From positions 1 to 64,000 of the IMG/VR virus record IMGVR_UViG_3300033076_001012: 64,000 nt of DNA. One strand, written 5' to 3'. This document shows positions 11,066 to 39,175 of this stretch, piece by piece. This stretch comes from a virus. Lineage: Duplodnaviria; Caudoviricetes. Every line of letters begins with the position of its first letter. The stretch's first letter is position 1. Both the position numbers and the translations under genes were made by a program. Below the pieces are notes generated by a model that worked only from the letters and a program-made list of their open reading frames with translations, searched no databases and was not told the origin of the DNA.

Positions 11066-11141
11066 AATTAACGATCTACAAATAACCTTAGTAAAACTAC
11101 TTAAATATACACTGTTTTATTAAGGTTATTTGTTGTTAGCA
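11066..11141 (-). repeat. attC-like site A3 (76 bp)
   Basis: Minus strand: TGCTAAC aacaa ATAACCTTAATAAAAC ... GTTTTACTAAGGTTAT ttgtagatc GTTAATT. Confidence 0.75.
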
Positions 11142-11147
11142 ACTGTT

Positions 11148-11645
11148 TTATAATCCTGAATTTTTACTCATTATTCTTGAGTAAAAATCTGCATACATTT
11201 TAAAAAATTTATTTAATTCTGCTTTATTTTCCGTATAAAAATCTATTCTCCAGTCGTCTTCTGTAATTCCTTTTTCATTTACCACGGGTCGTGGTAAATA
11301 GGTTGAACTTGTTTTAATTTTATCAAGCTGATTTACAAGTTTTTGCCATTTATTTCTTGTAAATATGCCAGAAAAACCCGAACTTATTGTTAATAAATCA
11401 ACCTCATCAATAAGTACTTGAAACTTATCAATATTCCACTCTTCTGTCAAAAGATTAGAATTTTTTGTTATTAGCTCTTTGGGAGATACAGTAATAAATT
11501 CTCGAAGTACGGATTTGTTATGTTTGGCAATTGCCCATATCCATTCCAACATTGTCTTTGGTATTGTTAATAGTGCCACTACAATAGATAACACTAATGC
11601 AAAATTATTTGCAAATGTTGTCCATGTAATGCAGATTATTTTCAT
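11148..11645 (-). CDS. cassette membrane protein, paralogue of 14686-15153
   Basis: N-terminal hydrophobic helix; IAKHNKSVLREFITVSPKELITK aligns with INEHNKRLFTDYIKIHPADLLTK. Confidence 0.75.
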   Translation of the reverse strand: MKIICITWTTFANNFALVLSIVVALLTIPKTMLEWIWAIAKHNKSVLREFITVSPKELITKNSNLLTEEWNIDKFQVLIDEVDLLTISSGFSGIFTRNKWQKLVNQLDKIKTSSTYLPRPVVNEKGITEDDWRIDFYTENKAELNKFFKMYADFYSRIMSKNSGL

Positions 11646-11947
11646 AAAACGATTTCTAAAAGAATAAGAATGTATGCAAGATACCTCCTTATTTTTTACG
11701 TTCCTCCTATTAGTTACTCATACATAAATTACTAGTAATTATTCGATTTTCTAAAAATTTCTCTACATTTATTTTAACTATTGTTTTTAGATAATAGCCG
11801 ATTAAAAAGTAGTTAACTTAAATTTTTTAGAGAAATGATTTGGATAATCATGTTTGGATTAATCACTCTTGTTAGAGAACTGACAAATTTGGTTAAAGCT
11901 ATTAAAGAGTAGCTGTGTAGTAGATAAATTTGAGTTTATTTACTTTG

Positions 11948-11976
11948 TCCCCTGTCCACAAGTCAGGGGATTTTTT
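11948..11976 (+). terminator. terminator-like hairpin
   Basis: tcccctg/cagggga stem followed by a T run. Confidence 0.5.
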
Positions 11977-11979
11977 ATT

Positions 11980-11987
11980 TATATTTG
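11980..11987 (+). promoter_or_regulatory. Bacteroidota sigma-A -7 element (TAnnTTTG)
   Basis: TATATTTG upstream of the structured leader and the plus-strand gene at 12216. Confidence 0.6.
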
Positions 11988-12030
11988 TTATAGTATTCAT
12001 ATAGCGTTAGCTATTCTCTTGTGGTTGAAA

Positions 12031-12200
12031 GCTTGGAAATTTTCAAACAGTAAACAAGAAATAGTCCTAATGCTCACGTCAAAGCGTGGGTTTAGGCTTT
12101 TCTATTTACTGTGGGTCTTCCAAGCACCTCAATCTATAGATTAGCATTAAGGCCCACGCTGATTTTTTATAAACTATCTACATAGGGTCTTGGTAGATAC
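12031..12200 (+). ncRNA. candidate structured RNA / 5' leader with possible pseudoknot
   Basis: Nested stems gcttggaa/ttccaagc and acagtaaa/tttactgt, plus crossing pairs taatgct/agcatta and agcgtggg/cccacgct. Confidence 0.4.
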
Positions 12201-12215
12201 AAAAAACCAAACTCT

Positions 12216-12812
12216 ATGAAAAATATTTTCTTTTTATCCTTATTTCTTTATGTTTCATTTATTATTAAATCTCAAGATTTAATAACATTAAAAACAGGTG
12301 AAGAAATTGTTTGTAAAGTAACAGAAATGGGAGTAGATGAAATAAAATATAAAAAACCAGAAAGAGATATAGTATATATAATTAATAAATCAAATGTATT
12401 TATGATTAAATATGAAAACGGAACTAAAGATGTTTTCTCAGATAAAAAAACAGAAACAGTTATTTCATCTACTAACTCAATAGATATGTTTGCTAAAGGT
12501 GAAGCAGATGCTGAAAGATATTACCTTGCGAAAAATACTGGAGCTGTTGGAACATTTATAACTACTATAGCTATGGGTGGATTACCATTTGGTCTTATTC
12601 CTGCAATAGCTTGTTCATCAACCACACCTAAAATGCAGAATTTATATATACCCGATAATACATTATTAAATAATAATCTCTATATGACCGGATATAAAAG
12701 CACCGCACATTCAATAAAAAAACGTAAAATATGGGGTGCTTTTGCTGCTGGAATAGCAGTAAATTTTGCAACTGGTATTATAGCATACAGTATTATAAAA
12801 AATAAAAGATAA
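12216..12812 (+). CDS. Bacteroidota-type exported/membrane protein (moron-like)
   Basis: Signal peptide; SQDLITLKTGEEIVCKV...IKYENG..DVF domain; C-terminal hydrophobic helices; opposite strand to all neighbours. Confidence 0.75.
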   Translation: MKNIFFLSLFLYVSFIIKSQDLITLKTGEEIVCKVTEMGVDEIKYKKPERDIVYIINKSNVFMIKYENGTKDVFSDKKTETVISSTNSIDMFAKGEADAERYYLAKNTGAVGTFITTIAMGGLPFGLIPAIACSSTTPKMQNLYIPDNTLLNNNLYMTGYKSTAHSIKKRKIWGAFAAGIAVNFATGIIAYSIIKNKR

Positions 12813-13072
12813 CTGAATTACTCTATAATCTCTGTTCTATCTACCTTTAATAAATGTTTAATATTTTAATAAAGAAGGGAGATTTTCTTTTAAAATTAGA
12901 TGTGAAGAATTTTTGGATTGAACTTGCAAAAGAAATCCTAAAATTTAGCCACACAAAATCTCAAGTGAAGTTGAAGTAGTAGTCTACTTATTAAACAAAG
13001 TACAAGTATCCTGTGTTATTAAATTAGCACAAGTTTTTTTATTTAATCTCCATATTTTCTACAAGAAGTCAG

Positions 13073-13090
13073 CATAAAATAGTTGCTAAT
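13073..13090 (-). repeat. bare cassette core plus leader (ATTAGCAACTATTTTATG), attC lost
   Basis: 17/18 identical to the leaders at 13578-13595 and 13991-14008. Confidence 0.65.
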
Positions 13091-13094
13091 GATC

Positions 13095-13580
13095 TTATTT
13101 TCTCAACCATATAGACTTGTCCATACTCCAGTGAATAAAATAATACATTATTTTAAATATTTTACTTGTTAATTTTATTCTTTTCTCATTATCATAATAA
13201 AAATCCATAAAAGGATCGTCCATTGGTATTATAATAACATTACCATCACATTGTCTTAATGTTTTATTTAAGTCTAATGAATGAATCCCTTTTAAATTTT
13301 TTATTAAATAATATATTACTATTTGCATAGGTAAACTAACAAGTCCAATAAAAAACCTGTTATTAACTGTCATTTTATATGTCTTTATTAATGCTTGTAT
13401 TAATAGTTGTTTGTCAACATCTAATTCAGAATAAATTTCAGGTCTATAGATACCTATGCAATCTCTATATTTGATTGCATTTATATACATAAGTCTTAAA
13501 AATAATGTTGAGAATAAACCAATAGTCCATTCCCAATGTTTTATAAATAAAAAGTCTATTAATGAAGTTGAACTATTCAT
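13095..13580 (-). CDS. cassette membrane protein, paralogue of 14099-14581
   Basis: Two hydrophobic segments; IKYRDCIGIYRPEIY, FIGLVSLPMQI and YYFIHWS align with 14099-14581. Confidence 0.75.
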   Translation of the reverse strand: MNSSTSLIDFLFIKHWEWTIGLFSTLFLRLMYINAIKYRDCIGIYRPEIYSELDVDKQLLIQALIKTYKMTVNNRFFIGLVSLPMQIVIYYLIKNLKGIHSLDLNKTLRQCDGNVIIIPMDDPFMDFYYDNEKRIKLTSKIFKIMYYFIHWSMDKSIWLRK

Positions 13581-13595
13581 AAAATAGTTGCTAAC
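13578..13595 (-). repeat. bare cassette core plus leader (GTTAGCAACTATTTTATG), attC lost
   Basis: Identical to the 18-nt leader at 13991-14008, with no palindrome upstream. Confidence 0.7.
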
Positions 13596-13630
13596 TAGTT
13601 ATTAATGAATAAAAGCATAAATACATTTAT

Positions 13631-13993
13631 TCAAAATATCTTACTTTTATTTTTTATAAAATTATCAAGTTTAATTTTAACATCTTTAATTTTTAAAATT
13701 TCATCATTAGAATATCTTTCAGGATTTGACCATGCTTGTGCTTTATTTAAAAGCAAATACCCTAATTCATTATCTGGATAATAACTGTATATAATAGATC
13801 CAGCATCTGCCCATAATTTAGCAATGTTTATATTTGAAGTAATTACTTCTCCATTATTAGCCAATACTCTTTCAGTCTCAATAATAGCTTTAAATATGGA
13901 ATCACAAATAACTCTTCTTTTTTCAGAATTCATCATTTTATCTTTAATTAATAATATTATAAGATTAAGTATAGTCTCTCTAAACTCTTTCAT
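13631..13993 (-). CDS. cassette hypothetical protein (start reassigned to MKEFRET)
   Basis: The ORF-track extension to 14071 runs through the attC site; ATG at 13993 follows the cassette leader. Confidence 0.7.
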   Translation of the reverse strand: MKEFRETILNLIILLIKDKMMNSEKRRVICDSIFKAIIETERVLANNGEVITSNINIAKLWADAGSIIYSYYPDNELGYLLLNKAQAWSNPERYSNDEILKIKDVKIKLDNFIKNKSKIF

Positions 13994-14001
13994 AAAATAG
14001 T

Positions 14002-14093
14002 TGCTAACGGTTTGCAGATAAAATAAGTTGCCACACAAGTTAACAATAATGAGTATTGTCCAATGTGGCAATTTATTTTATGTGCTGTTATAG
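14002..14093 (-). repeat. attC-like site A2 (92 bp)
   Basis: Minus strand: CTATAAC agcac ATAAAATAAATTGCCACA ... TGTGGCAACTTATTTTAT ctgcaaacc GTTAGCA. Confidence 0.85.
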
Positions 14094-14098
14094 CCAGT

Positions 14099-14581
14099 TT
14101 ATGTCCTCCGCTTATCAAATATATGATATATAGATCCTTTACTTGTCCAATGTATTAACCTATAAAATAAAGGGAAAAAGAAATTGAATATTTTAAATTC
14201 TTTTTCATATTTATAATAATAGTCCTCACTTGACATTTGAGAGTCTATCAAAGTTTCCCCTATGCTTTTTCTGTAATAAAGTTTGCTTAAACTAAACCAC
14301 ATTATTATACTTATGGGTAAAGTAAATATACCAATAGGAAAAGCTAAGTGTCTACCCATATCAATAAAACCATTTATTACTTTAATATAATTTTCTCTGT
14401 CCCAATTTATTTGTCTACTGTCTGTAAGAGTGTCTATATGGTAAATGTCCTCATACCAAACACCTATGTATTTTTTATACTTTAAGTAATTCCAAAACAT
14501 ATTTGTTGTTAAAATTGTAAATAATGTAGTTATAACCCAAATAGGATATTTGTCATAAAAGTCTATGATAAAGTCTTTCAT
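14099..14581 (-). CDS. cassette membrane protein
   Basis: Bounded by GTTATAGCCA and TGGCTATAAC; two transmembrane-like segments. Confidence 0.8.
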   Translation of the reverse strand: MKDFIIDFYDKYPIWVITTLFTILTTNMFWNYLKYKKYIGVWYEDIYHIDTLTDSRQINWDRENYIKVINGFIDMGRHLAFPIGIFTLPISIIMWFSLSKLYYRKSIGETLIDSQMSSEDYYYKYEKEFKIFNFFFPLFYRLIHWTSKGSIYHIFDKRRT

Positions 14582-14588
14582 AAATTGG

Positions 14589-14680
14589 CTATAACGGTTT
14601 GCCGACTTGCCCAGTGCCGCATAACATAGTGTTAAAATTTATCTGTCAATATGCGGCATTGGGTAAGACCGCTGTTAGCA
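14589..14680 (-). repeat. attC-like site A1 (92 bp)
   Basis: Minus strand: TGCTAAC agcgg TCTTACCCAATGCCGCATA ... TATGCGGCACTGGGCAAGT cggcaaacc GTTATAG. Confidence 0.85.
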
Positions 14681-14685
14681 GTTGT

Positions 14686-15153
14686 TTATGTCCACCACCA
14701 AAATACACCATCTTTCCACTTAACAAAGTCCCACAAAGCATTACTTAATCTGTCTATTTGCTTAATGTCCCCTGTTTCATCTTTAAAACTAGTCTTTGGA
14801 TCTGTTGTCCACCAATTTGAATCTAAATTATCTCTTATTTCCTTGACTTCTTGCCCAATTTTTAGTAATTTACTATAATAGTAATTAGCAAAGTAAATTC
14901 CTCTTGCTTTAATTTCTTGTTGTCTACAATACTCAAGATTGTCAAGAAGCTCAACTACTTTTTCAAAATTATATTTGTCGTCAGAGAAATTTATAAAAAG
15001 TCCACGCTTTGTTAAGAGGTCTGCTGGATGTATTTTTATATAGTCCGTAAAAAGTCTTTTGTTATGTTCATTTATTGTCATTAAAATTTTAATTATAGGA
15101 ACAGTCCCAATAAGTCCTGATATTATTACCCAATGTTTTATGATAAATTGCAT
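14686..15153 (-). CDS. cassette membrane protein
   Basis: Bounded by GTTAGCAGTT and AACTGCTAAC; N-terminal transmembrane helix. Confidence 0.8.
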   Translation of the reverse strand: MQFIIKHWVIISGLIGTVPIIKILMTINEHNKRLFTDYIKIHPADLLTKRGLFINFSDDKYNFEKVVELLDNLEYCRQQEIKARGIYFANYYYSKLLKIGQEVKEIRDNLDSNWWTTDPKTSFKDETGDIKQIDRLSNALWDFVKWKDGVFWWWT

Positions 15154-15171
15154 GATAAATAACTGCTAACT

Positions 15172-15208
15172 AATATATAAGTAAAGTTTTTAATTTTACT
15201 TATATATT
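15172..15208. terminator. 14-bp perfect AT hairpin between the polB stop and the first cassette core
   Basis: aatatataagtaaa/tttacttatatatt with a 9-nt loop. Confidence 0.5.
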
Positions 15209-15209
15209 G

Positions 15210-16004
15210 TTAAAATAAAGACATTTGTCCTACTTTCTCTATATCATTTATCCACTTTCTTGCCTCAGATATATAATAAGAGTAATCTATATCATATTCA
15301 TTAAAATCATTAACATAAAAATACTTATTGAAGTAAGTAACTTTCCAATCTTTTCTATTTTTTTCAGGGGCTTCAACATGGGAAATTGTTCCATCCTCGT
15401 ATATTTTATATAGCCAATATCCTTTATTAGATATGTAATATCTAACTGTCTTAGATAATTTTTCTTTAAACAATTGTCCATTTTTAATAGAATGTAATTC
15501 ATATCTTGATGCACCCTTTACTCCTGACTTTTTAGCTCTAACACCTGCACAAAAATCATAAATATTTTGATGATTTTTAATAGTATCTTCTATATTTTTG
15601 TTGTTAACAAAATATTCATATACTGCCAATGGTATTATAGCATGAGATTTATTTTTATGTAAAGGTATATCCTTAAATTCAAATTTACCTTTAGTTTTTG
15701 TTTTACCATTTGTATATATTGCAATATAGTTATTGCAATCTGCTATTATCATTTTCTGATAATCTACAAACTCCATTTCTATTTTATACAATTTTTCATA
15801 TTTCTTACATATAGAATAATATAATTCTTCATACTTTTTAGGTATAAGAACTTCACCACCATCAGTATTTAACATTATAAGTTTACTATCAGGTATGGAT
15901 TCTAATATATCTTCAAAAACCATTGATAATAATAGCTGACCATTTATACATATAGCAAGTGTAACTTTTCTATCTTTTAAAAAACTATATTTATCATTAC
16001 TTAA
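15210..16004 (-). CDS. polB: family B DNA polymerase, exon 2
   Basis: Resumes LSNDKYSFLKDRKVTLAICINGQLLLSMVFE after the intron; contains motif C LNTDGG and DCNNY; 795 nt in frame. Confidence 0.9.
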   Translation of the reverse strand, partial: LSNDKYSFLKDRKVTLAICINGQLLLSMVFEDILESIPDSKLIMLNTDGGEVLIPKKYEELYYSICKKYEKLYKIEMEFVDYQKMIIADCNNYIAIYTNGKTKTKGKFEFKDIPLHKNKSHAIIPLAVYEYFVNNKNIEDTIKNHQNIYDFCAGVRAKKSGVKGASRYELHSIKNGQLFKEKLSKTVRYYISNKGYWLYKIYEDGTISHVEAPEKNRKDWKVTYFNKYFYVNDFNEYDIDYSYYISEARKWINDIEKVGQMSLF

Positions 16005-17141
16005 CGTTTTGTTATCTATAAGGCTTTTTATCCCTATATTCTTTAAATTTTATTCTCTAAAGTCCAGCATATATTTTCATCCATAAACGGATGGTGGATA
16101 CTCGTGATTGGATTATATTTATTCACCAACTATGCGTTACACTACTTTTAAACCTTTCGCAATTTTAAAAGTTAGCACGGTATTAGCATTTCAGCCTTCA
16201 CCGTTTTTACCCACTAATAATCTTAAACATTACTATTTAAGACGGCTCAAAATATTTAAAAACTAAACCTTTATACGGTTTACTATTTCTACAAGATTGA
16301 AAAATATTAGGAAGTTTTAATTCTTTTCCAGATTTACTTCTAAATAAAGAAGTATTGTTCCATATTTCAGAGTTTTCTGTTTTTGATAATCTAACTATTT
16401 CTTGTGCATCTGAATACACTCCCAAAAGTATGTTGTTATGATATACAGAAATTTTTTTCCTAAGTTCTTTAAAGCGAGATCTTCTTTTCAAAAGACCTGT
16501 TTCTGACATAATTCTATCAGCATTTTTTAATTTTTCAATATGTTCATTACTCAATTTCTTACCTTTATTCCAAGGAACAGATTTCATATAATGATTTACT
16601 ATATTTATATACTTTTTTGGTATATCTTGATATAATATATCATTATTTTTTAATCTATAATAATAAGAAATTGCAGTGTTTATAGTTTCTTTAAATGTTT
16701 TAGATCTTCTGCTAAAAACTTCTTTATTTGTAATAATTGGAGGTCTAAAGGAATATATATTTATATTATAACCTCTTTTGTTAAAAGGTTTATAAATATC
16801 AAAAGCTCTTTGTTCCCATTTTAAAACATTATCACATACTAACATTATTCTAAAATAAAATTTATCTGCTCCATATTTATTATACGCATTTTGTAAATAT
16901 TTATTTTCGTGAGAATTCTTTTTTAAACCATTAATGTGAAACATTAATCTATTTTTAAAAGATTTGTTAGTAGATCCTATATAAACTTTTTTAGTAATGG
17001 TATTTACTATTGCATAAACACCTTTTTTGTTTAGTTTTTCTAAATCTCTAATGTAAATTGTCATATTAAATATATTAAGATTGTACTCAATACATCTAAG
17101 ATAAGTATTTTTGCTTAGAAATCCAAATATTTTTTTAGTTA
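16005..17141 (-). ncRNA. group I self-splicing intron in polB
   Basis: The 5' exon ends in U (TATGGT) and the intron ends in G (aacaaaacG). Core elements AAACGGTGAAGGC...GCTAATACCGTG and P7-like GCATA/TATGC lie downstream of the endonuclease ORF. Removal restores KILLNSSYG-LSND. Confidence 0.85.
16237..17064 (-). CDS. GIY-YIG homing endonuclease (intron-encoded)
   Basis: GVYAIVNTITKKVYIGST, R...H, and a NUMOD-like PWNKGKKLS..HIEKL segment. Confidence 0.9.
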   Translation of the reverse strand: MTIYIRDLEKLNKKGVYAIVNTITKKVYIGSTNKSFKNRLMFHINGLKKNSHENKYLQNAYNKYGADKFYFRIMLVCDNVLKWEQRAFDIYKPFNKRGYNINIYSFRPPIITNKEVFSRRSKTFKETINTAISYYYRLKNNDILYQDIPKKYINIVNHYMKSVPWNKGKKLSNEHIEKLKNADRIMSETGLLKRRSRFKELRKKISVYHNNILLGVYSDAQEIVRLSKTENSEIWNNTSLFRSKSGKELKLPNIFQSCRNSKPYKGLVFKYFEPS

Positions 17142-18239
17142 ACCATAACTACTATTAAGCAAAATTTTTAAAATATAATTTCTTGGATCAGATTTTGGTA
17201 TAGACTTTCTTTCATTAAAGAATCCTTCATATAAATTTAAAAAAACATCCTTTGGTAAATGTTCTGCACAAATATTATTTCTTATAGCAAGATTTGGATA
17301 CCATGATACAAAATCTAAAGATTTTATAATATATTTTTCATCACTTTCAATAATTGCATTATTTGGTGAAGCATGTACACCGCCCAAACCATAAACTATA
17401 TCTATACCTGAATGTTTTATTATAAATTCAGGTTTACTTGTTTCAGTTATTATCAAATCTTCATAAGATTTTTTGAGAAGTTGAAATTTTTGAGTTTTAA
17501 AATTAACATATGGAAATATTATATCTTTTACACTAACAATATCTCTTTTAGTACCCATACTTCTTAGATCAGATTCACTTATACCCATAGCTCTACTAAG
17601 ATATTTACTAAATAATCTTTTCGCTAAATCAGGTTCTGTACAATTCAATAAGTTTATACCTTCTCTATCTGTTAATTTCTTTCTAAGATCTATTTCATGG
17701 TAATACTTTTGATAAAGACTTTTTGTAGCTAAAACATCATTTAAATTGTAAGATAAAACCATTTCTTCCCAATTATCACCTTCTCCCTGAGATGGTATAT
17801 CCTCAATATTTGGAAAATCCGTTTGAAATTCACACCATTTTAATCCAACTCTTTTAGCCTTAGTACTTAAACTCAAAGCTCTAAATAAGTCTAAATGTGG
17901 TATTTTAAGTTTCCATTCAGGAACATCTGATTTTCTATCCTCTGAAGTTATAATTTGAGCGTAATTTCTTATTTCTTCAACCGTACATTTAGGATAACGA
18001 AACATATATTCTAATATTTGAGAATCAAAGTGTAAACAATTATAACCTATTAGTCCAGAAACTTCATTTTCTAAAAATGTAAACATTTCTAATCTTTCAT
18101 CTTTTAATGAACTAATCACAAATATCTTTTTATCATCACTATCTCTATCTACAAAAGTAGCTGTAAAAATATTCAATGTTTCTAAATCATATATCCAAAC
18201 CTTTTTATACATTTTTTTTAATTTAGTTATATTTTTCAT
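17142..18239 (-). CDS. polB: family B DNA polymerase, exon 1 (3'-5' exonuclease plus palm motifs A and B)
   Basis: YDLE, GYNCLHFD, YNLNDV, YGLGGVH, DFVSWYPN, KILLNSSYG. Confidence 0.9.
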
Positions 18240-18286
18240 TAAGTAAACATACGCTTATCACCTGTTATGTACAATAAAATGCGCCA

Positions 18287-18544
18287 TCAGGTTGAGTGCT
18301 TCTTAAATGTAATTTTTCCATTTTGGCAATTCAAATCTGCATTACAATCGGGGCATTTTGCATCAAAATTTGGTGCTATAACAAGTTGAAGCGTTACTGC
18401 TGTAAATGATATTACCATTCCAATTAGCAATAATGCGAAATGCGTGTTGTTGTGCCAAGTATCTGTAATGTTAAACCAAATCAATATTTGTCCTAAAATT
18501 GCCAAAATGTAAAATCGGTATCCCCAAAGTTTTTTCATATTCAT
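18287..18544 (-). CDS. cassette membrane protein with C-terminal CxxC...C
   Basis: Two transmembrane-like segments plus CPDC; flanked by a long inverted repeat GTTATGTA..AAAATGCGCCA. Confidence 0.65.
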   Translation of the reverse strand: MNMKKLWGYRFYILAILGQILIWFNITDTWHNNTHFALLLIGMVISFTAVTLQLVIAPNFDAKCPDCNADLNCQNGKITFKKHST

Positions 18545-18573
18545 TAAGTTTTAGTTTGGCGCATTTTACTGAT

Positions 18574-18659
18574 ACATAACAGCACCCTTGCGCAATTAGG
18601 TTGCTGTTAATATTTTTATGGATGCAACCTAACTATCGCAAGGCCGCAACCCGTTATGC
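18574..18659 (+). repeat. attC-like site B1 (86 bp)
   Basis: ACATAAC agcac CCTTGCG..TTAGGTTGC ... GCAACCTAA..CGCAAGG ccgcaaccc GTTATGC. Confidence 0.85.
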
Positions 18660-18674
18660 GGCATTAAAACGACC

Positions 18675-19000
18675 GCATAACAGCAAATAGGATCAATAAA
18701 TTAATTTTATTCGTAGTTCATTTTGTAATTCAATCAAAGTATCTACTGTAAAATTATGTCCTCCACTTAACCACTTAGTAATAACAGAGGGTTGTTGTTT
18801 CATTTTTAATGCTAATTCTTTTTTACCTATCTTATTTTTTGCCATTCCTTCACTAATCTTCTTAGCAATAGTCATTTTTGCTAAAGTTTTTTCATAAGCA
18901 ACTTTATCTTTTATTTTAAAAAAATCGTCTAATATTTTGCTCTCGTGTTTTTTCATTTGTATAAAATTAATTTACTAAGCCTATTTGCAAACCGTTAGCG
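18675..19000 (+). repeat. attC-like site B2 (326 bp) with a gene in its loop
   Basis: GCATAAC agcaa ATAGG..TAAATTAATTTTA ... TAAAATTAATTTA..CCTAT ttgcaaacc GTTAGCG. Confidence 0.8.
18693..18956 (-). CDS. XRE/HigA-like HTH protein (orphan antitoxin-like) inside the B2 loop
   Basis: KKELALKMKQQPSVITKWLSGGHNFTVDTLIEL is an XRE-type HTH pattern. Confidence 0.8.
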   Translation of the reverse strand: MKKHESKILDDFFKIKDKVAYEKTLAKMTIAKKISEGMAKNKIGKKELALKMKQQPSVITKWLSGGHNFTVDTLIELQNELRIKLIY

Positions 19001-19125
19001 GTCATTGCCTAAAATTTCTGAATATTGTATGTTATTGCCATTATTATCGGATGAAGCCAAATACTGCTTACCTGCTAATTTAAAAGGTTGTCCTAAATAA
19101 ATTTCAGGCAACGCCACTTCGTTAC

Positions 19126-19189
19126 CGCTAACAGCACCTAAAACGCAACTCCGCTACGCTCCGCAGCGTTTAGCTGCAAAACGTTAAAT
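19126..19189 (+). repeat. attC-like site B3 (64 bp)
   Basis: CGCTAAC agcac CTAAAACGC ... GCGTTTAG ctgcaaaac GTTAAAT, with one extra A in the left arm. Confidence 0.85.
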
Positions 19190-19197
19190 GTAATGCC

Positions 19198-19515
19198 TTA
19201 GCCCTCGCACGCTTTTATCATATTTTCAACTTCGTCAAACATTTCATAAGGCAAATGAGTTGGTCTATCGTCTTCTTCTGATATTTTATAGAGTGCGTGT
19301 TGATGAACTTTTTTTAATAACACTAAAAGTTCATTTTTTATTTTACACTCAAATTGGTATTTTTCAAAATAATCAGCTTGAGCTTGTTTCTCATTATAAA
19401 TAACGGTAAATGTTGAGCCATCTTTATCAACAATACATCCTATTTGGTTAATTTCGTGTATCGAATTATTTGTAATCCAGTTTAAAAAATCACGAGTATT
19501 AAATTGTTTTGTCAT
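19198..19515 (-). CDS. cassette hypothetical protein (likely start MTKQF)
   Basis: The ORF-track extension to 19587 runs through the attC B4 arm. Confidence 0.65.
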   Translation of the reverse strand: MTKQFNTRDFLNWITNNSIHEINQIGCIVDKDGSTFTVIYNEKQAQADYFEKYQFECKIKNELLVLLKKVHQHALYKISEEDDRPTHLPYEMFDEVENMIKACEG

Positions 19516-19556
19516 ATTAGTTTTTTTTAGTTTTAAAATGCCACCAAAGGCACTAC

Positions 19557-19634
19557 ATTTAACACGTAATTGGCGCAAGCCTTTCACGTTGGCTACCTGC
19601 TAACGGCCTGCCGCCAATCACGAGGCCGTTATGC
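19557..19634 (+). repeat. attC-like site B4 (78 bp)
   Basis: ATTTAAC acgta ATTGGCG ... CGCCAAT cacgaggcc GTTATGC. Confidence 0.85.
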
Positions 19635-20045
19635 TCCATTGCCTCGCTTAAAATACATTACTAAATCAGTTTGTATTACTTCGAGGTACTTTGCATCCTG
19701 TTCACTATTCCCTTCACTTGTATATGTCATTATGCAATTAAGAATATCTTTCAATTCGCTCGGCAACGAGAGCATAACAGGGGCTTTAATAAATAAACTA
19801 AAATTATCCCATGCCATAAATTGATAGTCATATTCAGTATAATTTATTCCTATTGAACTAATGTATGATAGTATATCAGTTTCAGTTGCATTGGCGAAAA
19901 TATATCTATGCGTTACTTTGCCTCCATCAATATTAAATTTAATGTGCGTAGATGCTTCGTGTTCTGTTGGTTCGCCATGCAACTGACAATGTGTTGTATA
20001 TGCCTTACATTGCTTGTATGCTATTGTTAATCTTCCTTTTTTCAT
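19629..20045 (-). CDS. hypothetical protein starting in the B5 loop and ending in the cassette body
   Basis: Reads through the attC arm as FSLFIKAPVMLSLP and stops at the TAA inside the distal GTTA core. Confidence 0.65.
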   Translation of the reverse strand: MKKGRLTIAYKQCKAYTTHCQLHGEPTEHEASTHIKFNIDGGKVTHRYIFANATETDILSYISSIGINYTEYDYQFMAWDNFSLFIKAPVMLSLPSELKDILNCIMTYTSEGNSEQDAKYLEVIQTDLVMYFKRGNGA

Positions 20046-20090
20046 AATGAATAATTTTAGTTTACTTCTTAAAGCCCCATCCCGTTATAA
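19772..20090 (+). repeat. attC-like site B5 (319 bp) with a gene in its loop
   Basis: GCATAAC aGGGCTTTAA..TAAACTAAAATTAT ... ATAATTTTAGTTTA..TTAAAGCCC catccc GTTATAA. Confidence 0.8.
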
Positions 20091-20118
20091 GTAACCCTAT
20101 CGGGTCGCTATCGCTTAC

Positions 20119-20391
20119 TTATAACAGCAAATAGGCTCAAGTTTTTAAACTATTAAGCCGTTTCTGCTCCTCAATTCTAAACATTTCGTAAAGCTCCTCA
20201 ATAGTCTTATACTCACAAGTAATATTTGACCAATATTTGCCTACGTGTTTCGGGTGCGTTTTAAGTCGCTTTACCCATTCGTTTTTTTGTAGCCACTCCG
20301 CAAAGTTTACCGCTACCATTTTAACTGCTTCTAATATCATTTCCATTTCGTTAAAGTTTAAAAACCTAAGCCTATTTGCGTAACGTTAGCG
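20119..20391 (+). repeat. attC-like site B6 (273 bp) with a gene in its loop
   Basis: TTATAAC agcaa ATAGGCT..GTTTTTAAACT ... AGTTTAAAAAC..AGCCTAT ttgcgtaac GTTAGCG. Confidence 0.8.
20137..20346 (-). CDS. small hypothetical phage protein inside the B6 loop
   Basis: VNFAEWLQKNEW...YKTIEELYEMF motif; lies wholly between the attC arms. Confidence 0.7.
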   Translation of the reverse strand: MEMILEAVKMVAVNFAEWLQKNEWVKRLKTHPKHVGKYWSNITCEYKTIEELYEMFRIEEQKRLNSLKT

Positions 20392-20397
20392 GCAACC

Positions 20398-20643
20398 CTA
20401 AAAAGACTGCCACACAGTTTCAGCATCTGACCAAAAGCCAAAATCAAAATCGGTAATGTCTTGGTCTTTTTGAAAGACAAACATTTTAAACGTTCCATTT
20501 TTTGACTTAATGATTTGCTTTTGAAAGCTGTAAAACTCAACAGTAAGGCACTCTTGAAATGGTGCTGAACTTGCGTCTACAAAAACTCTGTCGCCATTAG
20601 TGCTTACTCTTAATCTCTGTTCGCTTGGAATGTGTATGTTCAT
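20398..20643 (-). CDS. cassette hypothetical protein
   Basis: Bounded by GTTAGCGGC and GCCGCTAAC. Confidence 0.65.
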   Translation of the reverse strand: MNIHIPSEQRLRVSTNGDRVFVDASSAPFQECLTVEFYSFQKQIIKSKNGTFKMFVFQKDQDITDFDFGFWSDAETVWQSF

Positions 20644-20671
20644 TTTATTTTGATTTGTGAAGAAGGGCAGC

Positions 20672-20803
20672 CGCTAACAAGGTATTAGCTATATGGCGGC
20701 TAACGTGCTTCGGTTAAACATTTGTTCTTTTATCAACTGCGGTTCTTCGTATCGGCTGTGTTGCTGTAATTCCGCCACATCGCTAATACCCGAACCGTTA
20801 TAG
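20672..20803 (+). repeat. attC-like site B7 (132 bp)
   Basis: CGCTAAC aaggt ATTAGC.ATATGGCGG ... CCGCCACAT.GCTAAT acccgaacc GTTATAG. Confidence 0.85.
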
Positions 20804-20810
20804 CCAATAG

Positions 20811-21206
20811 CTACCATTCTCGGTCAACACCGACTTGTATGAAGTCAACACTTTCCGAATAACAACCATTTGATTCACCAAACCAACGAATATCTACATA
20901 GCCTTTTATCGTTGCTATTTTATAAAATGTCCACGTACAAGAACCCCAATCATTTGCTTCTTTTGTTCGCTTAATGTCTTCTTCCGAAGTTGGTTCATAG
21001 TTTGAAACTTCTTCTGCTTTTAAGATTGGTGTTCCAATCAAGTCGTTTAAGTCACCGTTAATATCTTCAATCGAAACACTTTCACAGCAATTTTGTCCGT
21101 GATACATTTTGTATTGTGTTCCATCATCAACGATAAAAATTAATTCATCGCCATTGTTTTTGATTTCGGTAAGTGTTTTACCTACTAAGTCTTTAAATTC
21201 TGCCAT
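20811..21206 (-). CDS. conserved phage protein (DUF7448-like) in a cassette
   Basis: MYH.Q.CCESV.IEDI.GDL..LIG.PIL.AEE...[25 protein letters not shown]; family name from recollection. Confidence 0.7.
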
Positions 21207-21253
21207 TGTATTTGTTTTTAAAATTAAGTTTCTACTAATTAATCCGCTACTGG

Positions 21254-21355
21254 CTATAACAGCACCTTAGCGTCAGTTTTTGGCTATTTAGTTTATAGGT
21301 AACTTGAACATTTCGGTAAGCCAAAAACCAAACGCCAAGCTGCAAAACGTTAGCA
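21254..21355 (+). repeat. attC-like site B8 (102 bp)
   Basis: CTATAAC agcac CTTAGCG..GTTTTTGGCT ... AGCCAAAAAC..CGCCAAG ctgcaaaac GTTAGCA. Confidence 0.85.
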
Positions 21356-21359
21356 CCAA

Positions 21360-21653
21360 TTAACCAACGCTCGGTTTAGGCGCTATTTTTAGCTTGTTCT
21401 TTTTCATAACGTGCTGTCTTATTTTGGTAAACAATTTTTGAACGGCTTTTTCTCTTGCCTTATCATTTATCAAGCCAGCAAATTGTAAGTAAGTAATGCT
21501 TTCTCTTAATTTTTCAAAATGCTTTACTTCTTCTGCATCAAATTTAAAACCCTGTTCTTTTAATTGTTTCGCAATCGGTGGCACTAATGCTCCAAAGCCG
21601 ATTCTAAATTGTTTGTTTTCTTCCATTTTTTTATATTTAGTTATTAATTCCAA
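21360..21653 (-). CDS. cassette hypothetical protein
   Basis: Bounded by GTTAGCACCA and TGGTGCTAAC; the true start may be MEENKQF. Confidence 0.7.
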   Translation of the reverse strand: MELITKYKKMEENKQFRIGFGALVPPIAKQLKEQGFKFDAEEVKHFEKLRESITYLQFAGLINDKAREKAVQKLFTKIRQHVMKKNKLKIAPKPSVG

Positions 21654-21667
21654 CGCACTTTAACTGG

Positions 21668-21740
21668 TGCTAACAGCACATACACGCTATTTTTCCACCC
21701 ACTTCCAACGCTCACAGCGTGTATCTACGATACTTTTGAA
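21668..21740 (+). repeat. terminal attC-like site B9 (distal core degenerate)
   Basis: TGCTAAC agcac ATACACGCT ... AGCGTGTAT ctacgatac followed by TTTTGAA instead of GTT. Confidence 0.7.
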
Positions 21741-21827
21741 AAATCTAACCATTGGTTTAATAATTTATCTATCTGCATATTTTAAAGTTTTTTTCAAATT
21801 CCAAAACAGATGATTTGTCATCTTTTT

Positions 21828-22046
21828 TCATTTATTGTCTAAAGTTAAATAATAATTAATACTTGCATTAACGGCAATATTAAACAAATGTACCCTTATA
21901 TCATTATCTGGCTTATTTATACCAACAATATCTATTTCTCTCATATCATAAATATATCTAACTATCAAAGAACTTGCTTGCTCAAATGTCAAAGTTTGTT
22001 TTTGAGATAATTTAGATATATCAATAGCATCTTCTCTAGTTATCAT
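21828..22046 (-). CDS. hypothetical protein
   Basis: Co-oriented small early gene. Confidence 0.6.
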   Translation of the reverse strand: MITREDAIDISKLSQKQTLTFEQASSLIVRYIYDMREIDIVGINKPDNDIRVHLFNIAVNASINYYLTLDNK

Positions 22047-24041: not shown

Positions 24042-24133
24042 TGGTCAGGGTAGGACTTGAACCTACAATGCTGGTTTATACACCATTTCTGGTACAGCCT
24101 CACGTTTCAGCGTCTACATTCCGCCACCTGACC
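24042..24133 (-). tRNA. tRNA-like element, anticodon undeterminable
   Basis: Acceptor stem GGTCAGG/CCTGACC, D arm GCG-GAATGTAGA-CGC and T arm GTAGG-TTCAAGT-CCTAC are present; no canonical anticodon stem-loop. Confidence 0.6.
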
Positions 24134-29705: not shown

Positions 29706-30155
29706 ATGATAGTTGATATTATATACAACTTATTACCCCTACTACTTGTAGTAGTTGCAGCTGCATGTAACGCAGTTATGGACACTCTAACACATCATTA
29801 CGATAGCTCTGTATTTAAACTAAAAGATAGACAGTTTTGGGACCCCTCTATATCTTGGGAAAATAAATACAATATACTTACAGACTACAATACTGGTAAA
29901 AAAACATATATACATAAAAAAATAGGTGATACTAACATAAATACTATAGATGCACTTTCAGATGCCTGGCACATATTTAAATCCCTATCAATAATATCCA
30001 TACTATTAGCTCTATCCTTAACATCCATTATCCCATTAACCATACCCACAATCCATCCATTAATCCTACTACCATCCCTTCTAATACTTTATGGATTAGT
30101 GTGGAATAAAACATTTAATCTGTTCTATAACAAACTCTTACTTATCAAAAAATAA
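29706..30155 (+). CDS. conserved membrane protein
   Basis: AACNAVMDTL...FWDPSISW.NKY...DAWH.FK with hydrophobic helices. Confidence 0.75.
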   Translation: MIVDIIYNLLPLLLVVVAAACNAVMDTLTHHYDSSVFKLKDRQFWDPSISWENKYNILTDYNTGKKTYIHKKIGDTNINTIDALSDAWHIFKSLSIISILLALSLTSIIPLTIPTIHPLILLPSLLILYGLVWNKTFNLFYNKLLLIKK

Positions 30156-30209
30156 TAAATAAAAGTAATAAAAAGTAACATTTTACTTGACTTTTAAGAA
30201 TCAAACTAC

Positions 30210-30217
30210 TATATTTG
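30210..30217 (+). promoter_or_regulatory. Bacteroidota sigma-A -7 element
   Basis: TATATTTG with cttgac about 20 nt upstream. Confidence 0.65.
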
Positions 30218-30229
30218 TAATAGTTCTTT

Positions 30230-30490
30230 GATATAACCAGTTTAGGTTACTCGAACAAGTAGCTGACACTATAAGTTTGCTCTCTGAGCTTTAAAGTCAG
30301 TAATCCAACTATTATCATCTAATGTTGGTGGTTGATGTGGGGAAAACAACCTGTAAGATACTATCGAGTATAGATCTTACATAAACCCCAAACATTCATA
30401 TAAAATGTTATCCTACTTCCCCGTACATACAACCCCCTGAAGTATTGAGATAACATAAACATCCCCAACCCCCTAAAGTTGGGGTTTTGT
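30230..30490 (+). ncRNA. candidate structured RNA ending in a terminator
   Basis: Stems tgtaagat/atcttaca inside tgggg/cccca, ctgac/gtcag and ccaac/gttgg; terminator ccccaac/gttgggg followed by TTTT. Confidence 0.4.
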
Positions 30491-30573
30491 TTTTATAAAT
30501 ATTTCATAGTTTTTTATTCAAACCTAATAAATTATATTAGATAAAAATATAATAAAAATAGTTAATTAATAAT

Positions 30574-30978
30574 TTGGAAATAACATACATTGTTATTATC
30601 TTTGTCTTATACATAAATTCCATGACAATAGAACATAAAGGAGATATTAAAACACTTCTAAATTATAAACTAACTATTCTTACTCCATATCTTAAAACAA
30701 CTAATAAAGAGAATATGGTAATTATCTATCTTTTAGATAAGTATCTTCAAATAAAACATGAAGTAGAATTTCAAAAGAAATTAAATTCTCCTGAAACATT
30801 TGCTAACATGGCTAGGGATCTGGGTATATCAATAGATTATCTTAATAACATAAAACGTGCTTTAAGAGTTAAAAAACTATTAACAGAAAACAACTCATTA
30901 TCCAATATACTCTACACCCTCATTCCTTCAAAGGATGAATCTAAAAATACTATAAGCTTTAAGTTCTCATTACAATGA
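30574..30978 (+). CDS. hypothetical protein (likely start MTIEHKG)
   Basis: HTH-like segment FANMARDLGISIDYLNNIKRAL. Confidence 0.65.
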   Translation: MEITYIVIIFVLYINSMTIEHKGDIKTLLNYKLTILTPYLKTTNKENMVIIYLLDKYLQIKHEVEFQKKLNSPETFANMARDLGISIDYLNNIKRALRVKKLLTENNSLSNILYTLIPSKDESKNTISFKFSLQ

Positions 30979-32745: not shown

Positions 32746-32817
32746 GGTTTCTAAGCATATGTGGAGATGCTCCTGATTTGTACTCAGGATAACAGGGTTC
32801 GACTCCTTGAGAAACCT
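32746..32817 (+). tRNA. tRNA-Thr(UGU)
   Basis: GGTTTCT/AGAAACC acceptor stem, CCTGA-TTTGTAC-TCAGG anticodon arm, CAGGG-TTCGACT-CCTTG T arm; no encoded CCA. Confidence 0.9.
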
Positions 32818-38414: not shown

Positions 38415-38419
38415 GGAGA

Positions 38420-39175
38420 ATGTTTAGATCGTTGCCTGCAAAAGATAGAGTTGAATTAATGATGGCTTATAAGAAAACTAATCCATCATTATCATACTAT
38501 GATATGATAAAACAATTTAACTCAGAAGTAGAGGAGTATACTAAAGGTGGTAAGGTTAAACCTGCTCCCATAGATCCAAACCTCACTATTCTGCAACAAG
38601 AAATTGCTCCTCCCATACAAGATAATACTTTTGTACAACCTCCTATCATACAACAACCTCTTACTAAACAATCCTTAATAACTAAACAACAACCTCACAA
38701 ATTTAACAGACAAGAGTATACAGATAAGTTAAAAATATATACCAATAGAGAAAGTTTTAGTAAAAGTCCTTTAAAAGGAAGAGAACATCTTATAACAAAA
38801 GCTGTAGAAGATTCTTATAATCTAACAGGTGTAGAGATACCTCCTGAATTTATGTTAACTCAGGGACAACAAGAAACACAACTTGGTACTAAACTTAAAT
38901 CCAGAAATAATATATGGAATGTTGGTAACTATGATGATGGTAGAGTAAAACATTATAAAAATGTATATGATGCTGCTTTAGATTATTCTAATTTAATTGC
39001 TAAAGACTATCTTAGAAATGGTAAAAAGACAATAGACGATTTATTATCTCCAGGAGGATATGTAAATTTTGACAATAAAAGATATGCTTCAGATCCAAAT
39101 TATGAAAATAAAATATCTAAAATGATGGACTATACTAAAAGATATATAAAAAATAGATATAAAAAATCTCAATAA
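38420..39175 (+). CDS. lysozyme-like (GH73/FlgJ-type) peptidoglycan hydrolase
   Basis: QGQQETQLG, NNIWNVG, YASDPNY. Confidence 0.7.
   Translation: MFRSLPAKDRVELMMAYKKTNPSLSYYDMIKQFNSEVEEYTKGGKVKPAPIDPNLTILQQEIAPPIQDNTFVQPPIIQQPLTKQSLITKQQPHKFNRQEYTDKLKIYTNRESFSKSPLKGREHLITKAVEDSYNLTGVEIPPEFMLTQGQQETQLGTKLKSRNNIWNVGNYDDGRVKHYKNVYDAALDYSNLIAKDYLRNGKKTIDDLLSPGGYVNFDNKRYASDPNYENKISKMMDYTKRYIKNRYKKSQ

Follow-up and report, generated by a model that had tools for sequence, protein, structure and literature searches.

The phage studied here is represented by the Caudoviricetes record IMGVR_UViG_3300033076_001012, a metagenome assembly of 89 kb, of which positions 1-64,000 were analysed and are referred to as the window; related loci are cited by L numbers. 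The window carries an integron-like gene-cassette array (array 2), and in three of its cassettes, those of sites B2, B5 and B6, cargo lies within the loop of the folded site itself. Cores, bodies and sites of this array are on the plus strand and the ORFs named below on the minus strand. The array starts with a lone R' core, GTTATGT (18264-18270), 24 nt upstream of the start codon of a DNA polymerase gene, and the reverse complement of that core, ACATAAC, is the R'' of the first site, B1, at 18574. B1 is a short attC-like site of 86 nt (18574-18659) that fits the 5/9 geometry described below with 0 mismatches and comes after a cassette with its gene in the body (ORF 18287-18544). The body of cassette 2 is 29 nt long (18653-18681) and consists of an R stem, GTTATGCGG/CCGCATAAC, under a conserved cap, CATTAAAACGA. 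Its site, B2, is long (326 nt, 18675-19000) and reads GCATAAC-AGCAA-arm ... arm-TTGCAAACC-GTTAGCG, with the arms at 18683-18710 and 18961-18988. The gene in the B2 loop (87 aa, 18693-18956) has a weak helix-turn-helix (Xre-like) match; HTH_3 is hit at E 2.8e-4, below the cut-off, and the PHROG matches are HTH and regulator families. Two short sites follow, B3 (19126-19189, CGCTAAC ... GTTAAAT), whose cassette body (18995-19125) holds no convincing gene, and B4 (78 nt, 19557-19634).

The second long site, B5 (319 nt, 19772-20090), reads GCATAAC-A-GGGGCTTTAA... / ...TTAAAGCCCC-ATCCC-GTTATAA and has its arms at 19780-19807 and 20051-20078. An ORF of 138 aa (19629-20045) occupies the B5 loop with its first two thirds and the cassette body with its last third, crossing the R core GCATAAC in frame. 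The body of cassette 6 is again short (42 nt, 20084-20125), with the R stem GTTATAAGTAA/TTACTTATAAC and a conserved 20-nt loop, CCCTATCGGGTCGCTATCGC; among the contexts listed, this hairpin stands ahead of the same scaffold in eight. The third long site, B6 (273 nt, 20119-20391; arms 20127-20151 and 20355-20379), is built on that scaffold, GCAAATAGGCTCAA ... CTAAGCCTATTTGC, and its loop holds a gene of 69 aa (20137-20346) of no known family, the last codons (NSLKT) and TGA stop of which come from the arm. The short sites B7 (132 nt, 20672-20803) and B8 (102 nt, 21254-21355) come next, B8 travelling with a DUF7448 gene (20811-21206) here and likewise in L017. The final site, B9 (21668-21740), has a complete L stem and TTTTGAA in place of the R' core, and its right end is the junction with the phage backbone. 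Array 1 (11066-15170) belongs to the same site family but lies on the opposite, minus strand, and its genes are sense to the sites.

The sites of this family share the geometry TAAC-A-N4-L''...L'-N8-C-GTTA. Across the window and related loci 54 sites have it, against 1.4 in shuffles, and B2, B5 and B6 match it with 0-1 mismatch. All nine sites of array 2 have attC cores (RYYYAAC / GTTRRRY), and their R'' is complementary to the cassette start; the cores read xxxTAAC and GTTAxxx, and RRRY is not always strictly fitted (e.g. GTTATGC). They are also chained, in that R'' matches, as reverse complement, the R' opening the same cassette and not its own R' (9/9 sites). A looser detector (AAC...GTT with any spacers) was dropped, its matches being no more frequent than in shuffles. 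We also rejected taking the coding strand as the top strand, with crossover at the other core, on five lines of evidence. In the 5/9 reading both arrays open with a lone R' and close with a complete site, the capped body always travels with the right-hand site, a C invariably precedes GTT, and the recombinase of related loci is located at the lone-R' end. In addition, the DUF7448 gene shares with L017 only its B8-side hairpin, while five different hairpins are found opposite. L018, seemingly contrary to the chosen top strand, retains a remnant, AAGGTTGCT, of the expected hairpin.

A first-pass annotation of this DNA had described paired arms in B2, B5 and B6, near-empty bodies before B2 and B6, and an inverted cassette in which the cargo rides in the hairpin loop. 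The arm pairs are 28 nt and 89% complementary in B2, 28 nt and 93% in B5, and 25 nt and 92% in B6. A scan for inverted repeats (24 nt, up to 3 mismatches, 150-700 nt spacer) gave four binned matches in 18000-22000, which were these three arm pairs, and comparable repeats numbered 0 in 200 shuffles and 0 in the remaining 53 kb of the window. In single-stranded DNA folds the arms of all three sites pair together in both the minimum-energy and the centroid structures. Compared with shuffles, the whole-site fold energy is only weakly better for B2 (z -0.94), and it is better for B6 (-2.46) and B5 (-4.17); as the arms are AT-rich, the repeat statistic rather than the fold energy is the relevant test. 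Chance or an assembly artefact might be suspected of AT-rich arms in a metagenome assembly, in which the overall fold of B2 does not stand out from its shuffles. Against this speak the repeat scan and the recurrence of the design in dozens of independent assemblies and many other phage sequences, which refutes such an origin; we consider it practically discounted.

The enclosure of the genes by the arms also held up. The ORFs 18693-18956 and 20137-20346 both lie within the outer arm ends, and since their last 4-5 codons and stop belong to the left arm, they are enclosed by the stem rather than free of it; of the ORF 19629-20045 the 5' part is enclosed. The two short bodies are hairpins formed by both R cores (GTTATGCGG-CATTAAAACGA-CCGCATAAC in cassette 2 and GTTATAAGTAA-(20 nt)-TTACTTATAAC in cassette 6) and are not random filler. 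Circular folds of the excised bottom strands gave the predicted R stem and L stem for B2, B5, B6 and one normal cassette.

The placement of cargo in the hairpin loop generalises beyond the window. In a census of 62 distinct cassettes, 35 had short sites (median 97 nt) and long bodies (median 359 nt); an ORF was found in the body of 31 and in the site of none, a gene in the body being followed by a short site of 72-135 nt. Another 13 cassettes combined a body of at most 60 nt with a long site, and all 13 had an ORF in the loop. Their bodies are capped hairpins of 29-54 nt (median 41 nt), their sites are 190-480 nt long (median 260 nt), and their median L stem is 25 bp, compared with 13 bp where the gene is in the body. 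Site lengths are bimodal in a sample of 184 distinct sites that was enriched for long ones by the search: 107 are at most 140 nt, 72 are at least 185 nt, and 5 lie between. The two classes are nonetheless one family, sharing cores, spacers, caps and arrays. The cap CATTAAAACGA sits either on the L stem of a short site or on the R stem of an empty body, and the one on the cassette 2 body is found on other stems in 15 further places. The inverted-cassette reading of the first-pass annotation is thus supported. Its further suggestion of a possibly distinct cassette system stands for the site family as a whole, which departs from classical integrons in its 5/9 spacers, in genes mostly antisense to the site and, at related loci, in an Xer-type recombinase without the IntI insert; it does not stand for the long sites, which are not separate from the short ones.

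The arms of the long sites recur as a reusable scaffold. The B6 scaffold (the GCAAATAGG scaffold) was found in 44 distinct modules with 24 unrelated protein families, and 37 of the 44 contain an ORF of 40 aa or more, always on the same strand. The outer 14 nt of the arms are conserved over many modules, and the inner arms covary, with 10.1 of 12 positions matching within a module and 4.8 of 12 matching the partners of other modules. Homologues of the loop genes carry matching arms elsewhere, the B6 gene in L016, L187 and L193 and the B5 ORF in L040 and L041, where the layout is identical; the start of a B2-like module with arms is present in L007, cut by the contig end. The B6-gene homologues of L191 and L192 lack arms and are ordinary phage genes, and the DNA homology ends where the arms begin. 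These relatives were located by a protein database and DNA motifs. With the whole array as blastn query, the DUF7448 gene was the only match in cultured phages, and an exact-peptide search of viral contigs with the B5, B2 and B6 proteins gave almost nothing. A scan of genome contigs with a 16-nt motif gave 120 matches, all chance ones except L097, a 2.7-kb contig in a Flavobacteriia bin, and therefore no host integron was found; that bin has Xer-like matches only, below the IntI cut-off.

Inverted repeats of 25-28 nt around a single small gene resemble the terminal inverted repeats of a transposon, as does the conservation of their outer 14 nt over many modules, and a long site could then be a short attC into whose loop a one-gene MITE-like element was inserted. 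We regard this as very improbable. Outside the arms there is no second, outer L stem, the arms starting one base past the R'' core; target-site duplications are absent; and the modules have no transposase gene, the small loop genes being their only ORFs. An empty copy of the scaffold (GCAAATAGGCT...AGCCTATTTGC) was not present among exact matches, which were only unrelated palindromes between tRNA genes. Insertion would not predict that a short body and a long site are always coupled, and the unit that moves is not the segment from arm to arm but the whole cassette bounded by GTTA.

That unit can be delimited from shared cassettes. The gene-in-loop cassette of L001 is 100% identical to that of L011 from GTTATAGCC... 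to ...CAATACGTTA, with unrelated flanks, and L008 and L014 show the same pattern, with the boundary at G|TT. Because identity ends exactly at the GTTA cores in unrelated contexts, the cassette moves as a unit. The same junction, G|TTATAAG, is abutted by eight different left flanks. Bodies alone are also exchanged between identical R cores: the hairpins of B6 and L016 differ, and in L042 another N-terminal part is joined at GTTAT to the same C-terminal module as in the B5 ORF. Such body-only exchange is not explained by one crossover point per site. It would suit repeats that serve as linkers for homologous recombination between phages rather than as sites of a site-specific recombinase, in the manner of the promoter-stem-loop cassettes of T4-type phages. 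The lack of a recombinase gene in this phage and five others, described below, and the RecT encoded by L041 would also suit linkers. However, such linkers would not account for identity that ends exactly at a GTTA core between unrelated flanks, for the pairing, in 9/9 sites, of four variable core bases with the opposite end of their cassette, for arrays on a fixed side and strand beside an Xer-type recombinase, or for stems that covary and are biased to one strand. We regard the linker reading as quite unlikely.

The strand bias bears on whether the long stems act in DNA or RNA. Among cassettes with antisense genes the bottom strand folds better in 52 of 57, and among those with sense genes in all three, the latter being short sites from the window, L208 and L232. 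Mismatches of the A.C type on the top strand, each of which becomes a G.T wobble on the bottom one, number 113 against 24 of the opposite kind. The strand that folds as DNA has the sequence of the mRNA in nearly all cassettes, leaving the few sense cassettes to separate selection at the DNA level from that at the RNA level; array 1 served as a control for this distinction, and all three of its sites fold better on the bottom strand. The long arms could instead be RNA structures, in which a 5' leader pairs with the 3' end of the gene for stability, processing or translation control while the short cores alone matter in DNA. Body ORFs of at least 40 aa lie on the better-folding strand in 30 of 31 cassettes, as do 37 of 37 scaffold loop ORFs, the asymmetry in wobbles is of the G.U type usual for RNA, and one arm immediately precedes the start codon while the other spans the stop codon, all of which an RNA stem would explain. 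With sense genes, though, it is the non-coding strand that folds better, both in the three census cassettes and in the three array 1 sites. Moreover, arms and cores are separated by the same fixed 5/9 spacing that sets off the L boxes of short non-coding sites, and the armless B6-gene homologues serve as ordinary phage genes. As one strand folds better regardless of gene direction, a DNA site is favoured over an RNA stem, and we think it unlikely that the long arms are RNA structures alone, the two functions being compatible with each other.

No tyrosine recombinase of any type was found in the 89-kb phage record or in five other scaffold-carrying viral records. Having two arrays, one of nine sites in 18264-21740 and the other at 11066-15170, but lacking a recombinase, the phage has the makeup of a CALIN, and activity in it would need an enzyme in trans, or else the array is a relic. 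In related viral contigs, 38 sites adjoin homologues of a 275-277 aa Xer-type recombinase, against 1.0 in shuffles; genes of this type include L174:5001-5825 and L041:2733-3563. These sites, among them long sites with capped bodies, all share one strand and lie to the same side of the gene, and relative to the top strand of the arrays the gene has the position and direction of intI. The enzyme can be aligned over its full length with XerA and XerC-like structures but in two pieces with VchIntIA. Compared with IntI4 (2a3v) it is about 43 residues shorter in the stretch that does not align, its own residues 172-202, which we take to be the region of the IntI-specific insert, and it scores under every curated cut-off. 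A complete integron, with an adjacent IntI bearing the extra domain, is thus found neither in the phage, which has none, nor at the related loci, where the Xer-type enzyme lacks the insert.

Taken together, B2, B5 and B6 probably function as recombination sites that fold from a single strand and belong to an integron-like family. An excised single-stranded circular cassette would fold into a rod with a loop at either end, the rod comprising the R stem (GTTAxxx/xxxTAAC, extended to 8-23 bp), a one-sided bulge of 4-5 nt that results from the 5/9 spacers, and the L stem. The cargo gene could then occupy either end loop. In most cassettes it would lie beyond the R stem, in the classical body, with a short loop closing the L stem. 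In B2 and B6 it would lie beyond the L stem, with the short conserved cap closing the R stem and leaving a near-empty body, and in B5 there would be coding sequence in both loops, with one ORF running through the R core. The L stem of gene-in-loop cassettes, about twice as long (23-31 bp), may compensate for the cost of closing a loop of 200-400 nt. As a reusable scaffold the upstream arm would form the 5' leader of the gene, and the downstream arm could give its last codons and TGA stop. By analogy with IntI, the Xer-type recombinase may cut the folded bottom strand at the R' core, and it presumably acts in trans here, as the phage is without it. The exact G|TT boundaries suggest that the cassettes are mobile, including those whose sites have loops of 200-400 nt.

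More tentatively, Bacteroidota phages (the host being a likely one) and their relatives could possess an undescribed integron-like system run by an Xer-type recombinase, in which the folded site is a second cargo slot and the scaffold of capped R stem and long L stem takes up unrelated genes, supplies them with leader and stop, and moves as a cassette; we consider this a serious possibility. If so, genes found both in the scaffold and armless would be snapshots of new-cassette formation, and the B6 gene, with the scaffold here and without it in L191 and L192, would offer a concrete case for studying how a gene is converted to a cassette. If the long sites work, the recombinase would require no more than the R stem, the bulge and the basal part of the L stem, and a stem of 25-30 bp would suffice to join ends 400 nt apart in single-stranded DNA. 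The cargo of the arrays consists of small accessory genes. In the related contig L041 the array includes a Tad2-like anti-defence gene and a DNA methylase, and the design may therefore be relevant to the exchange of counter-defence genes between phages.

Classical attC sites are about 55-141 nt long and non-coding, and the default upper limit for a site in IntegronFinder is 200 nt. Integron models and detection tools presume such a short non-coding site with the cargo alongside, and gene-bearing sites of 200-480 nt fall outside them; gene-in-loop cassettes would be read as empty cassettes or as gaps. B2 (326 nt), B5 (319 nt) and B6 (273 nt) each contain coding sequence. We found no description of a gene-in-loop, two-slot design in the integron literature searched. 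For virulent phages, attC sites including one from Polaribacter phage P12002L are reported to be recombined by IntI1 (Qi et al. 2023, PMC9892861). The intergenic hairpins of P12002L have, by eye, the same core-and-spacer layout and the same CATTAAAACGA cap as the sites described here; they fail our strict detector, and one of them would be the site recombined in that work. Common to the phage CALINs of that study and the present arrays are attC arrays in integrase-less lytic phage genomes. The study differs in using short-site detectors and, in the section considered here, in mentioning neither genes inside sites nor an Xer-type partner. That an attC structure can overlap coding sequence is seen in synthetic sites embedded in genes (Nivina et al. 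2020, PMC7439510) and in short ORFs within attC that aid translation (reviewed in PMC8876359). The former are engineered and the latter very short, and neither is a natural full gene in a hairpin loop.

A close likeness is also seen to V. cholerae-type attC sites with a large variable terminal structure (PMC2727003). Both have inverse AAC/GTT cores, an inner L''/L' pair with constant spacing to the cores, an interruption between R and L stems, a bottom strand that folds better, an R'' that is complementary to the sequence opening its own cassette, and a cassette that moves as a unit with a G|TT boundary, as between L001 and L011 and between L008 and L014. MITEs and TIR transposons, by comparison, are characterised by target-site duplication and arm-to-arm mobility, neither of which was found. 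In classical attC sites the extrahelical bases that direct strand choice are on the R''-L'' arm (Bouvier et al. 2009, PMC2727003). Here the surplus of 4 nt is on the L'-R' arm, with a bulge of 4-5 nt beside R', and strand choice as known for IntI is therefore not simply transferable. The present sites further differ from the V. cholerae type in their spacers of 5 and 9 nt, in an R stem that reaches 8-23 bp into the body, in genes mostly antisense to the site, and in a terminal structure of 200-400 nt that holds a complete gene.

The first-pass annotation had proposed that three long attC-like sites of array 2 (18264-21740), B2 (18675-19000), B5 (19772-20090) and B6 (20119-20391), hold genes inside their loops and that near-empty cassette bodies precede two of them; each part of that proposal held. 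The plus-strand inverted repeats lie at 18683-18710/18961-18988 in B2, 19780-19807/20051-20078 in B5 and 20127-20151/20355-20379 in B6. These arms are 25-28 nt long with 89-93% complementarity, their partners pair in both the minimum-energy and centroid single-strand folds, and repeats of this quality are absent both from 200 shuffles of the region and from the remaining 53 kb of the window. ORFs 18693-18956 and 20137-20346 sit between the arms of B2 and B6, respectively, with their last codons and stop within the left arm, while the first two thirds of ORF 19629-20045 (minus strand) lie within B5, its frame continuing through the core. The bodies before B2 and B6, of only 29 and 42 nt, are themselves hairpins built from two R cores. 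ORF 19629-20045, of 138 aa, crosses the R core in frame as CCT GTT ATG CTC, and the ATG of the core could be the start of a separate 47-aa ORF. In one related locus (L042), the C-terminal module of this ORF has another N-terminal part fused to it at GTTAT, and that part too sits in a long site; in a second (L041), the middle of the module is replaced and the ends are conserved.

The window, about 26% G+C, comes from an IMG/VR virus record of 89 kb with a completeness rating of 94%, of which it covers the first 64 kb. Array 2 falls in a 3.5-kb stretch at 35-38% G+C, filled by nine small minus-strand ORFs with repeats between them and bounded by a DNA polymerase gene (17139-18239, minus strand; PHROG match) and the gene 21828-22046. 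Array 1 (11066-15170, minus strand) has sites of the same family in opposite polarity, with genes sense to the sites; there the cassette start GTTAGCAACTATTTTATG appears twice, near 14007 and near 13593, and almost unchanged a third time at 13090. No sites separate these copies, and a single site (11141-11066) closes this stretch. A 275-aa GIY-YIG-like ORF (16237-17064, minus strand; KGVYAIVN...YIGST motif by eye) is flanked by DNA polymerase fragments (15210-15923 and 17139-18239) and resembles a homing endonuclease or an intron that interrupts the polymerase gene. tRNA genes (Rfam RF00005) lie at 24042-24133 (minus) and 32746-32817 (plus).

Read on the plus strand, the repeats of array 2 take the form xxxTAAC (R''), 5 nt (mostly AGCAM), inner arm L'', loop, inner arm L', 9 nt (mostly YYGCAAMCC) and GTTAxxx (R'). 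At every one of the nine sites, R'' is reverse-complementary in its four variable core bases to the R' at the start of its cassette rather than to the R' within the site, which is the signature of integron-type cassette exchange between the G and TT of the core. A detector was set to require TAAC-A, a 7-nt L'' at a distance of five bases, an L' complementary to it with one mismatch allowed, a nine-base spacer whose last base is C, and GTTA. It returned 54 sites from the window and 43 related loci, versus 1.4 in shuffles; these 5/9 sites, named for their spacers, are a real site family. Among 184 distinct sites of a wider sample, in which the mode of collection favoured long sites, 107 are at most 140 nt, 72 are at least 185 nt and 5 are intermediate.

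Placement of genes was measured in 62 distinct cassettes, with a threshold of at least 40 aa for body ORFs. Thirty-five have a median body of 359 nt and a median site of 97 nt, with such an ORF in the body of 31 and in the site of none. Another 13 have a median body of 41 nt and a median site of 260 nt, and an ORF lies in the site in 13/13 and in the body in 0/13, supporting the proposal that cargo rides in the loop. The median L stem is 25 bp in this group versus 13 bp in the gene-in-body group. The other 14 are intermediate, among them the B5 type, in which both compartments are coding.

B2 and B6 have in common the outer arms GCAAATAGGMTCAA and CTAAGCCTATTTGC, a scaffold present in 16 viral and 54 metagenome contigs. 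In its 44 distinct modules the sites span 183-484 nt, the arms have a median length of 23.5 nt, and the body is 29-71 nt in 33; 37 contain an ORF of at least 40 aa, every one on the same strand, and the proteins represent 24 unrelated families. Inner arms vary between modules but match at 10.1 of 12 positions when compared with the partner in the same module, versus 4.8 of 12 with partners from other modules, and our search found no empty scaffold without a gene. The short bodies bear one of a few conserved loops, or caps. The cap CATTAAAACGA closes the R stems of four sequences (GTTATGCGG, GTTATAGCA, GTTATGGCA and GTTAGCAAA) and, in other cassettes, the L stem where the site is short and minimal, as in sites of the cultured Polaribacter phage P12002L, so that one cap closes whichever end of the structure is without a gene. 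As a B6-type gene in the related contig L193 has another cap, TCGTTTTAATG, on its R stem, caps are exchangeable. Positions 1-400 of L193 hold two gene-in-loop cassettes of the same scaffold, back to back.

One gene-in-loop cassette is 100% identical between two contigs (L001 and L011) from GTTATAGCC to CAATACGTTA amid unrelated flanks, and L008 and L014 likewise have an identical cassette in unrelated surroundings. Sequence to the left of the capped body that begins GTTATAAGTAA differs among all eight contexts, placing the boundary between G and TTATAAG. Homologues of the B6 gene occur with the same arms in L016, L187 and L193 and, as ordinary phage genes without arms or cores, in L191 and L192 (69-81% identity). 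DNA homology between B6 and L192 stops at the start of the arms, and the natural C-terminal tail of the B6-gene product is replaced by arm-encoded NSLKT and a TGA stop. At the level of sequence, the interpretation as gene-in-loop cassettes is supported, and the comparisons suggest that they are mobile.

The strand on which the sites read 5/9 corresponds in behaviour to the classical top strand. In both arrays of the window a lone R' opens and a complete site closes, and a capped body moves together with the site on its right. The hairpin to the right of a DUF7448 gene is common to the window and the related locus L017, and on the other side five different hairpins are found in five loci. The base before GTT is always C, which fits a report that, in integron attC, the bottom strand has a conserved G following AAC (Bouvier et al. 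2009, PMC2727003). Among bodies with an ORF, the gene is antisense to the site in 30 of 31, and so are 37/37 scaffold loop ORFs, array 1 being a rare exception. Of 49 short and 25 long sites, 41 and 21, respectively, fold better as the bottom strand, and single mismatches are A.C on the top strand (G.T on the bottom) 113 times versus 24 for the reverse. Since the bottom strand is the mRNA strand in most cassettes, this bias by itself cannot separate DNA from RNA, and the stems might also act in the transcript. In sense-gene cassettes the bottom strand is non-coding and still folds better, in 3/3 sites of array 1 and in 3/3 sense cassettes of the census (window, L208 and L232). In this small sample, the bias together with the armless homologues favours a DNA-level site, to which an RNA role of the stems could conceivably be added.

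When the bottom strands of B2, B5, B6 and one normal cassette are folded as excised circles, the R and L stems fall into one line flanked by a loop on either side, and the cassette can thus be read as a rod whose two ends are loops. Cargo could sit in either of them; B2 and B6 would carry theirs in the L-side loop, and B5 would use both. Of this structure, a recombinase would be expected to need no more than the R stem, the bulge and the L-stem base.

No tyrosine recombinase is encoded in the 89-kb record or in five other viral records carrying the scaffold. In L041, which has a B5 homologue, a 276-aa tyrosine recombinase lies 50 nt from the lone core terminating the array. Its relatives occur in seventeen viral loci, and arrays of 5/9 sites adjoin the gene in 12; all 38 sites by recombinase genes, long sites after capped bodies among them, lie on one strand and one side of the gene (1.0 expected). 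The best-scoring model for these recombinases is XerA, with a score under its cut-off, and their alignments with XerA and XerC-like structures extend over the whole length. Alignment to VchIntIA (2a3v) is in two pieces, leaving 29 residues opposite 72 in what we take to be the site of the IntI-specific insert. These loci thus have the layout of an integron but an enzyme of the Xer type. Positions 159-3563 of L041, a small contig, form a complete integron-like unit of Xer-type recombinase and cassettes, including a DNA methylase, a Tad2-like (anti-Thoeris) gene and the B5 homologue, followed by RecT. Before the first core of array 1 (15171-15200), TTATATATTA abutting GTTAG resembles the pre-core sequences by the recombinase genes of L041/L171 (CATATAATA and CATATAGTA, each abutting GTTAT) and may be a remnant of an attI-like site.

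Very short ORFs within attC sites are known (PMC8876359), as are engineered attC sites placed inside genes (PMC7439510). A full-text literature search returned no description of natural full genes within attC loops or of an Xer-type recombinase partner of such phage arrays, which does not prove their absence. As published (PMC9892861), attC clusters occur in virulent phages and some of the sites are recombined by IntI1. In phage P12002L (KR136259), intergenic hairpins lie between methyltransferase genes at 29974-30964 and 38016-38949; by eye these follow the same core-and-spacer layout, and they carry the CATTAAAACGA cap, so the attC cluster published for this phage appears to be part of the 5/9 site family.
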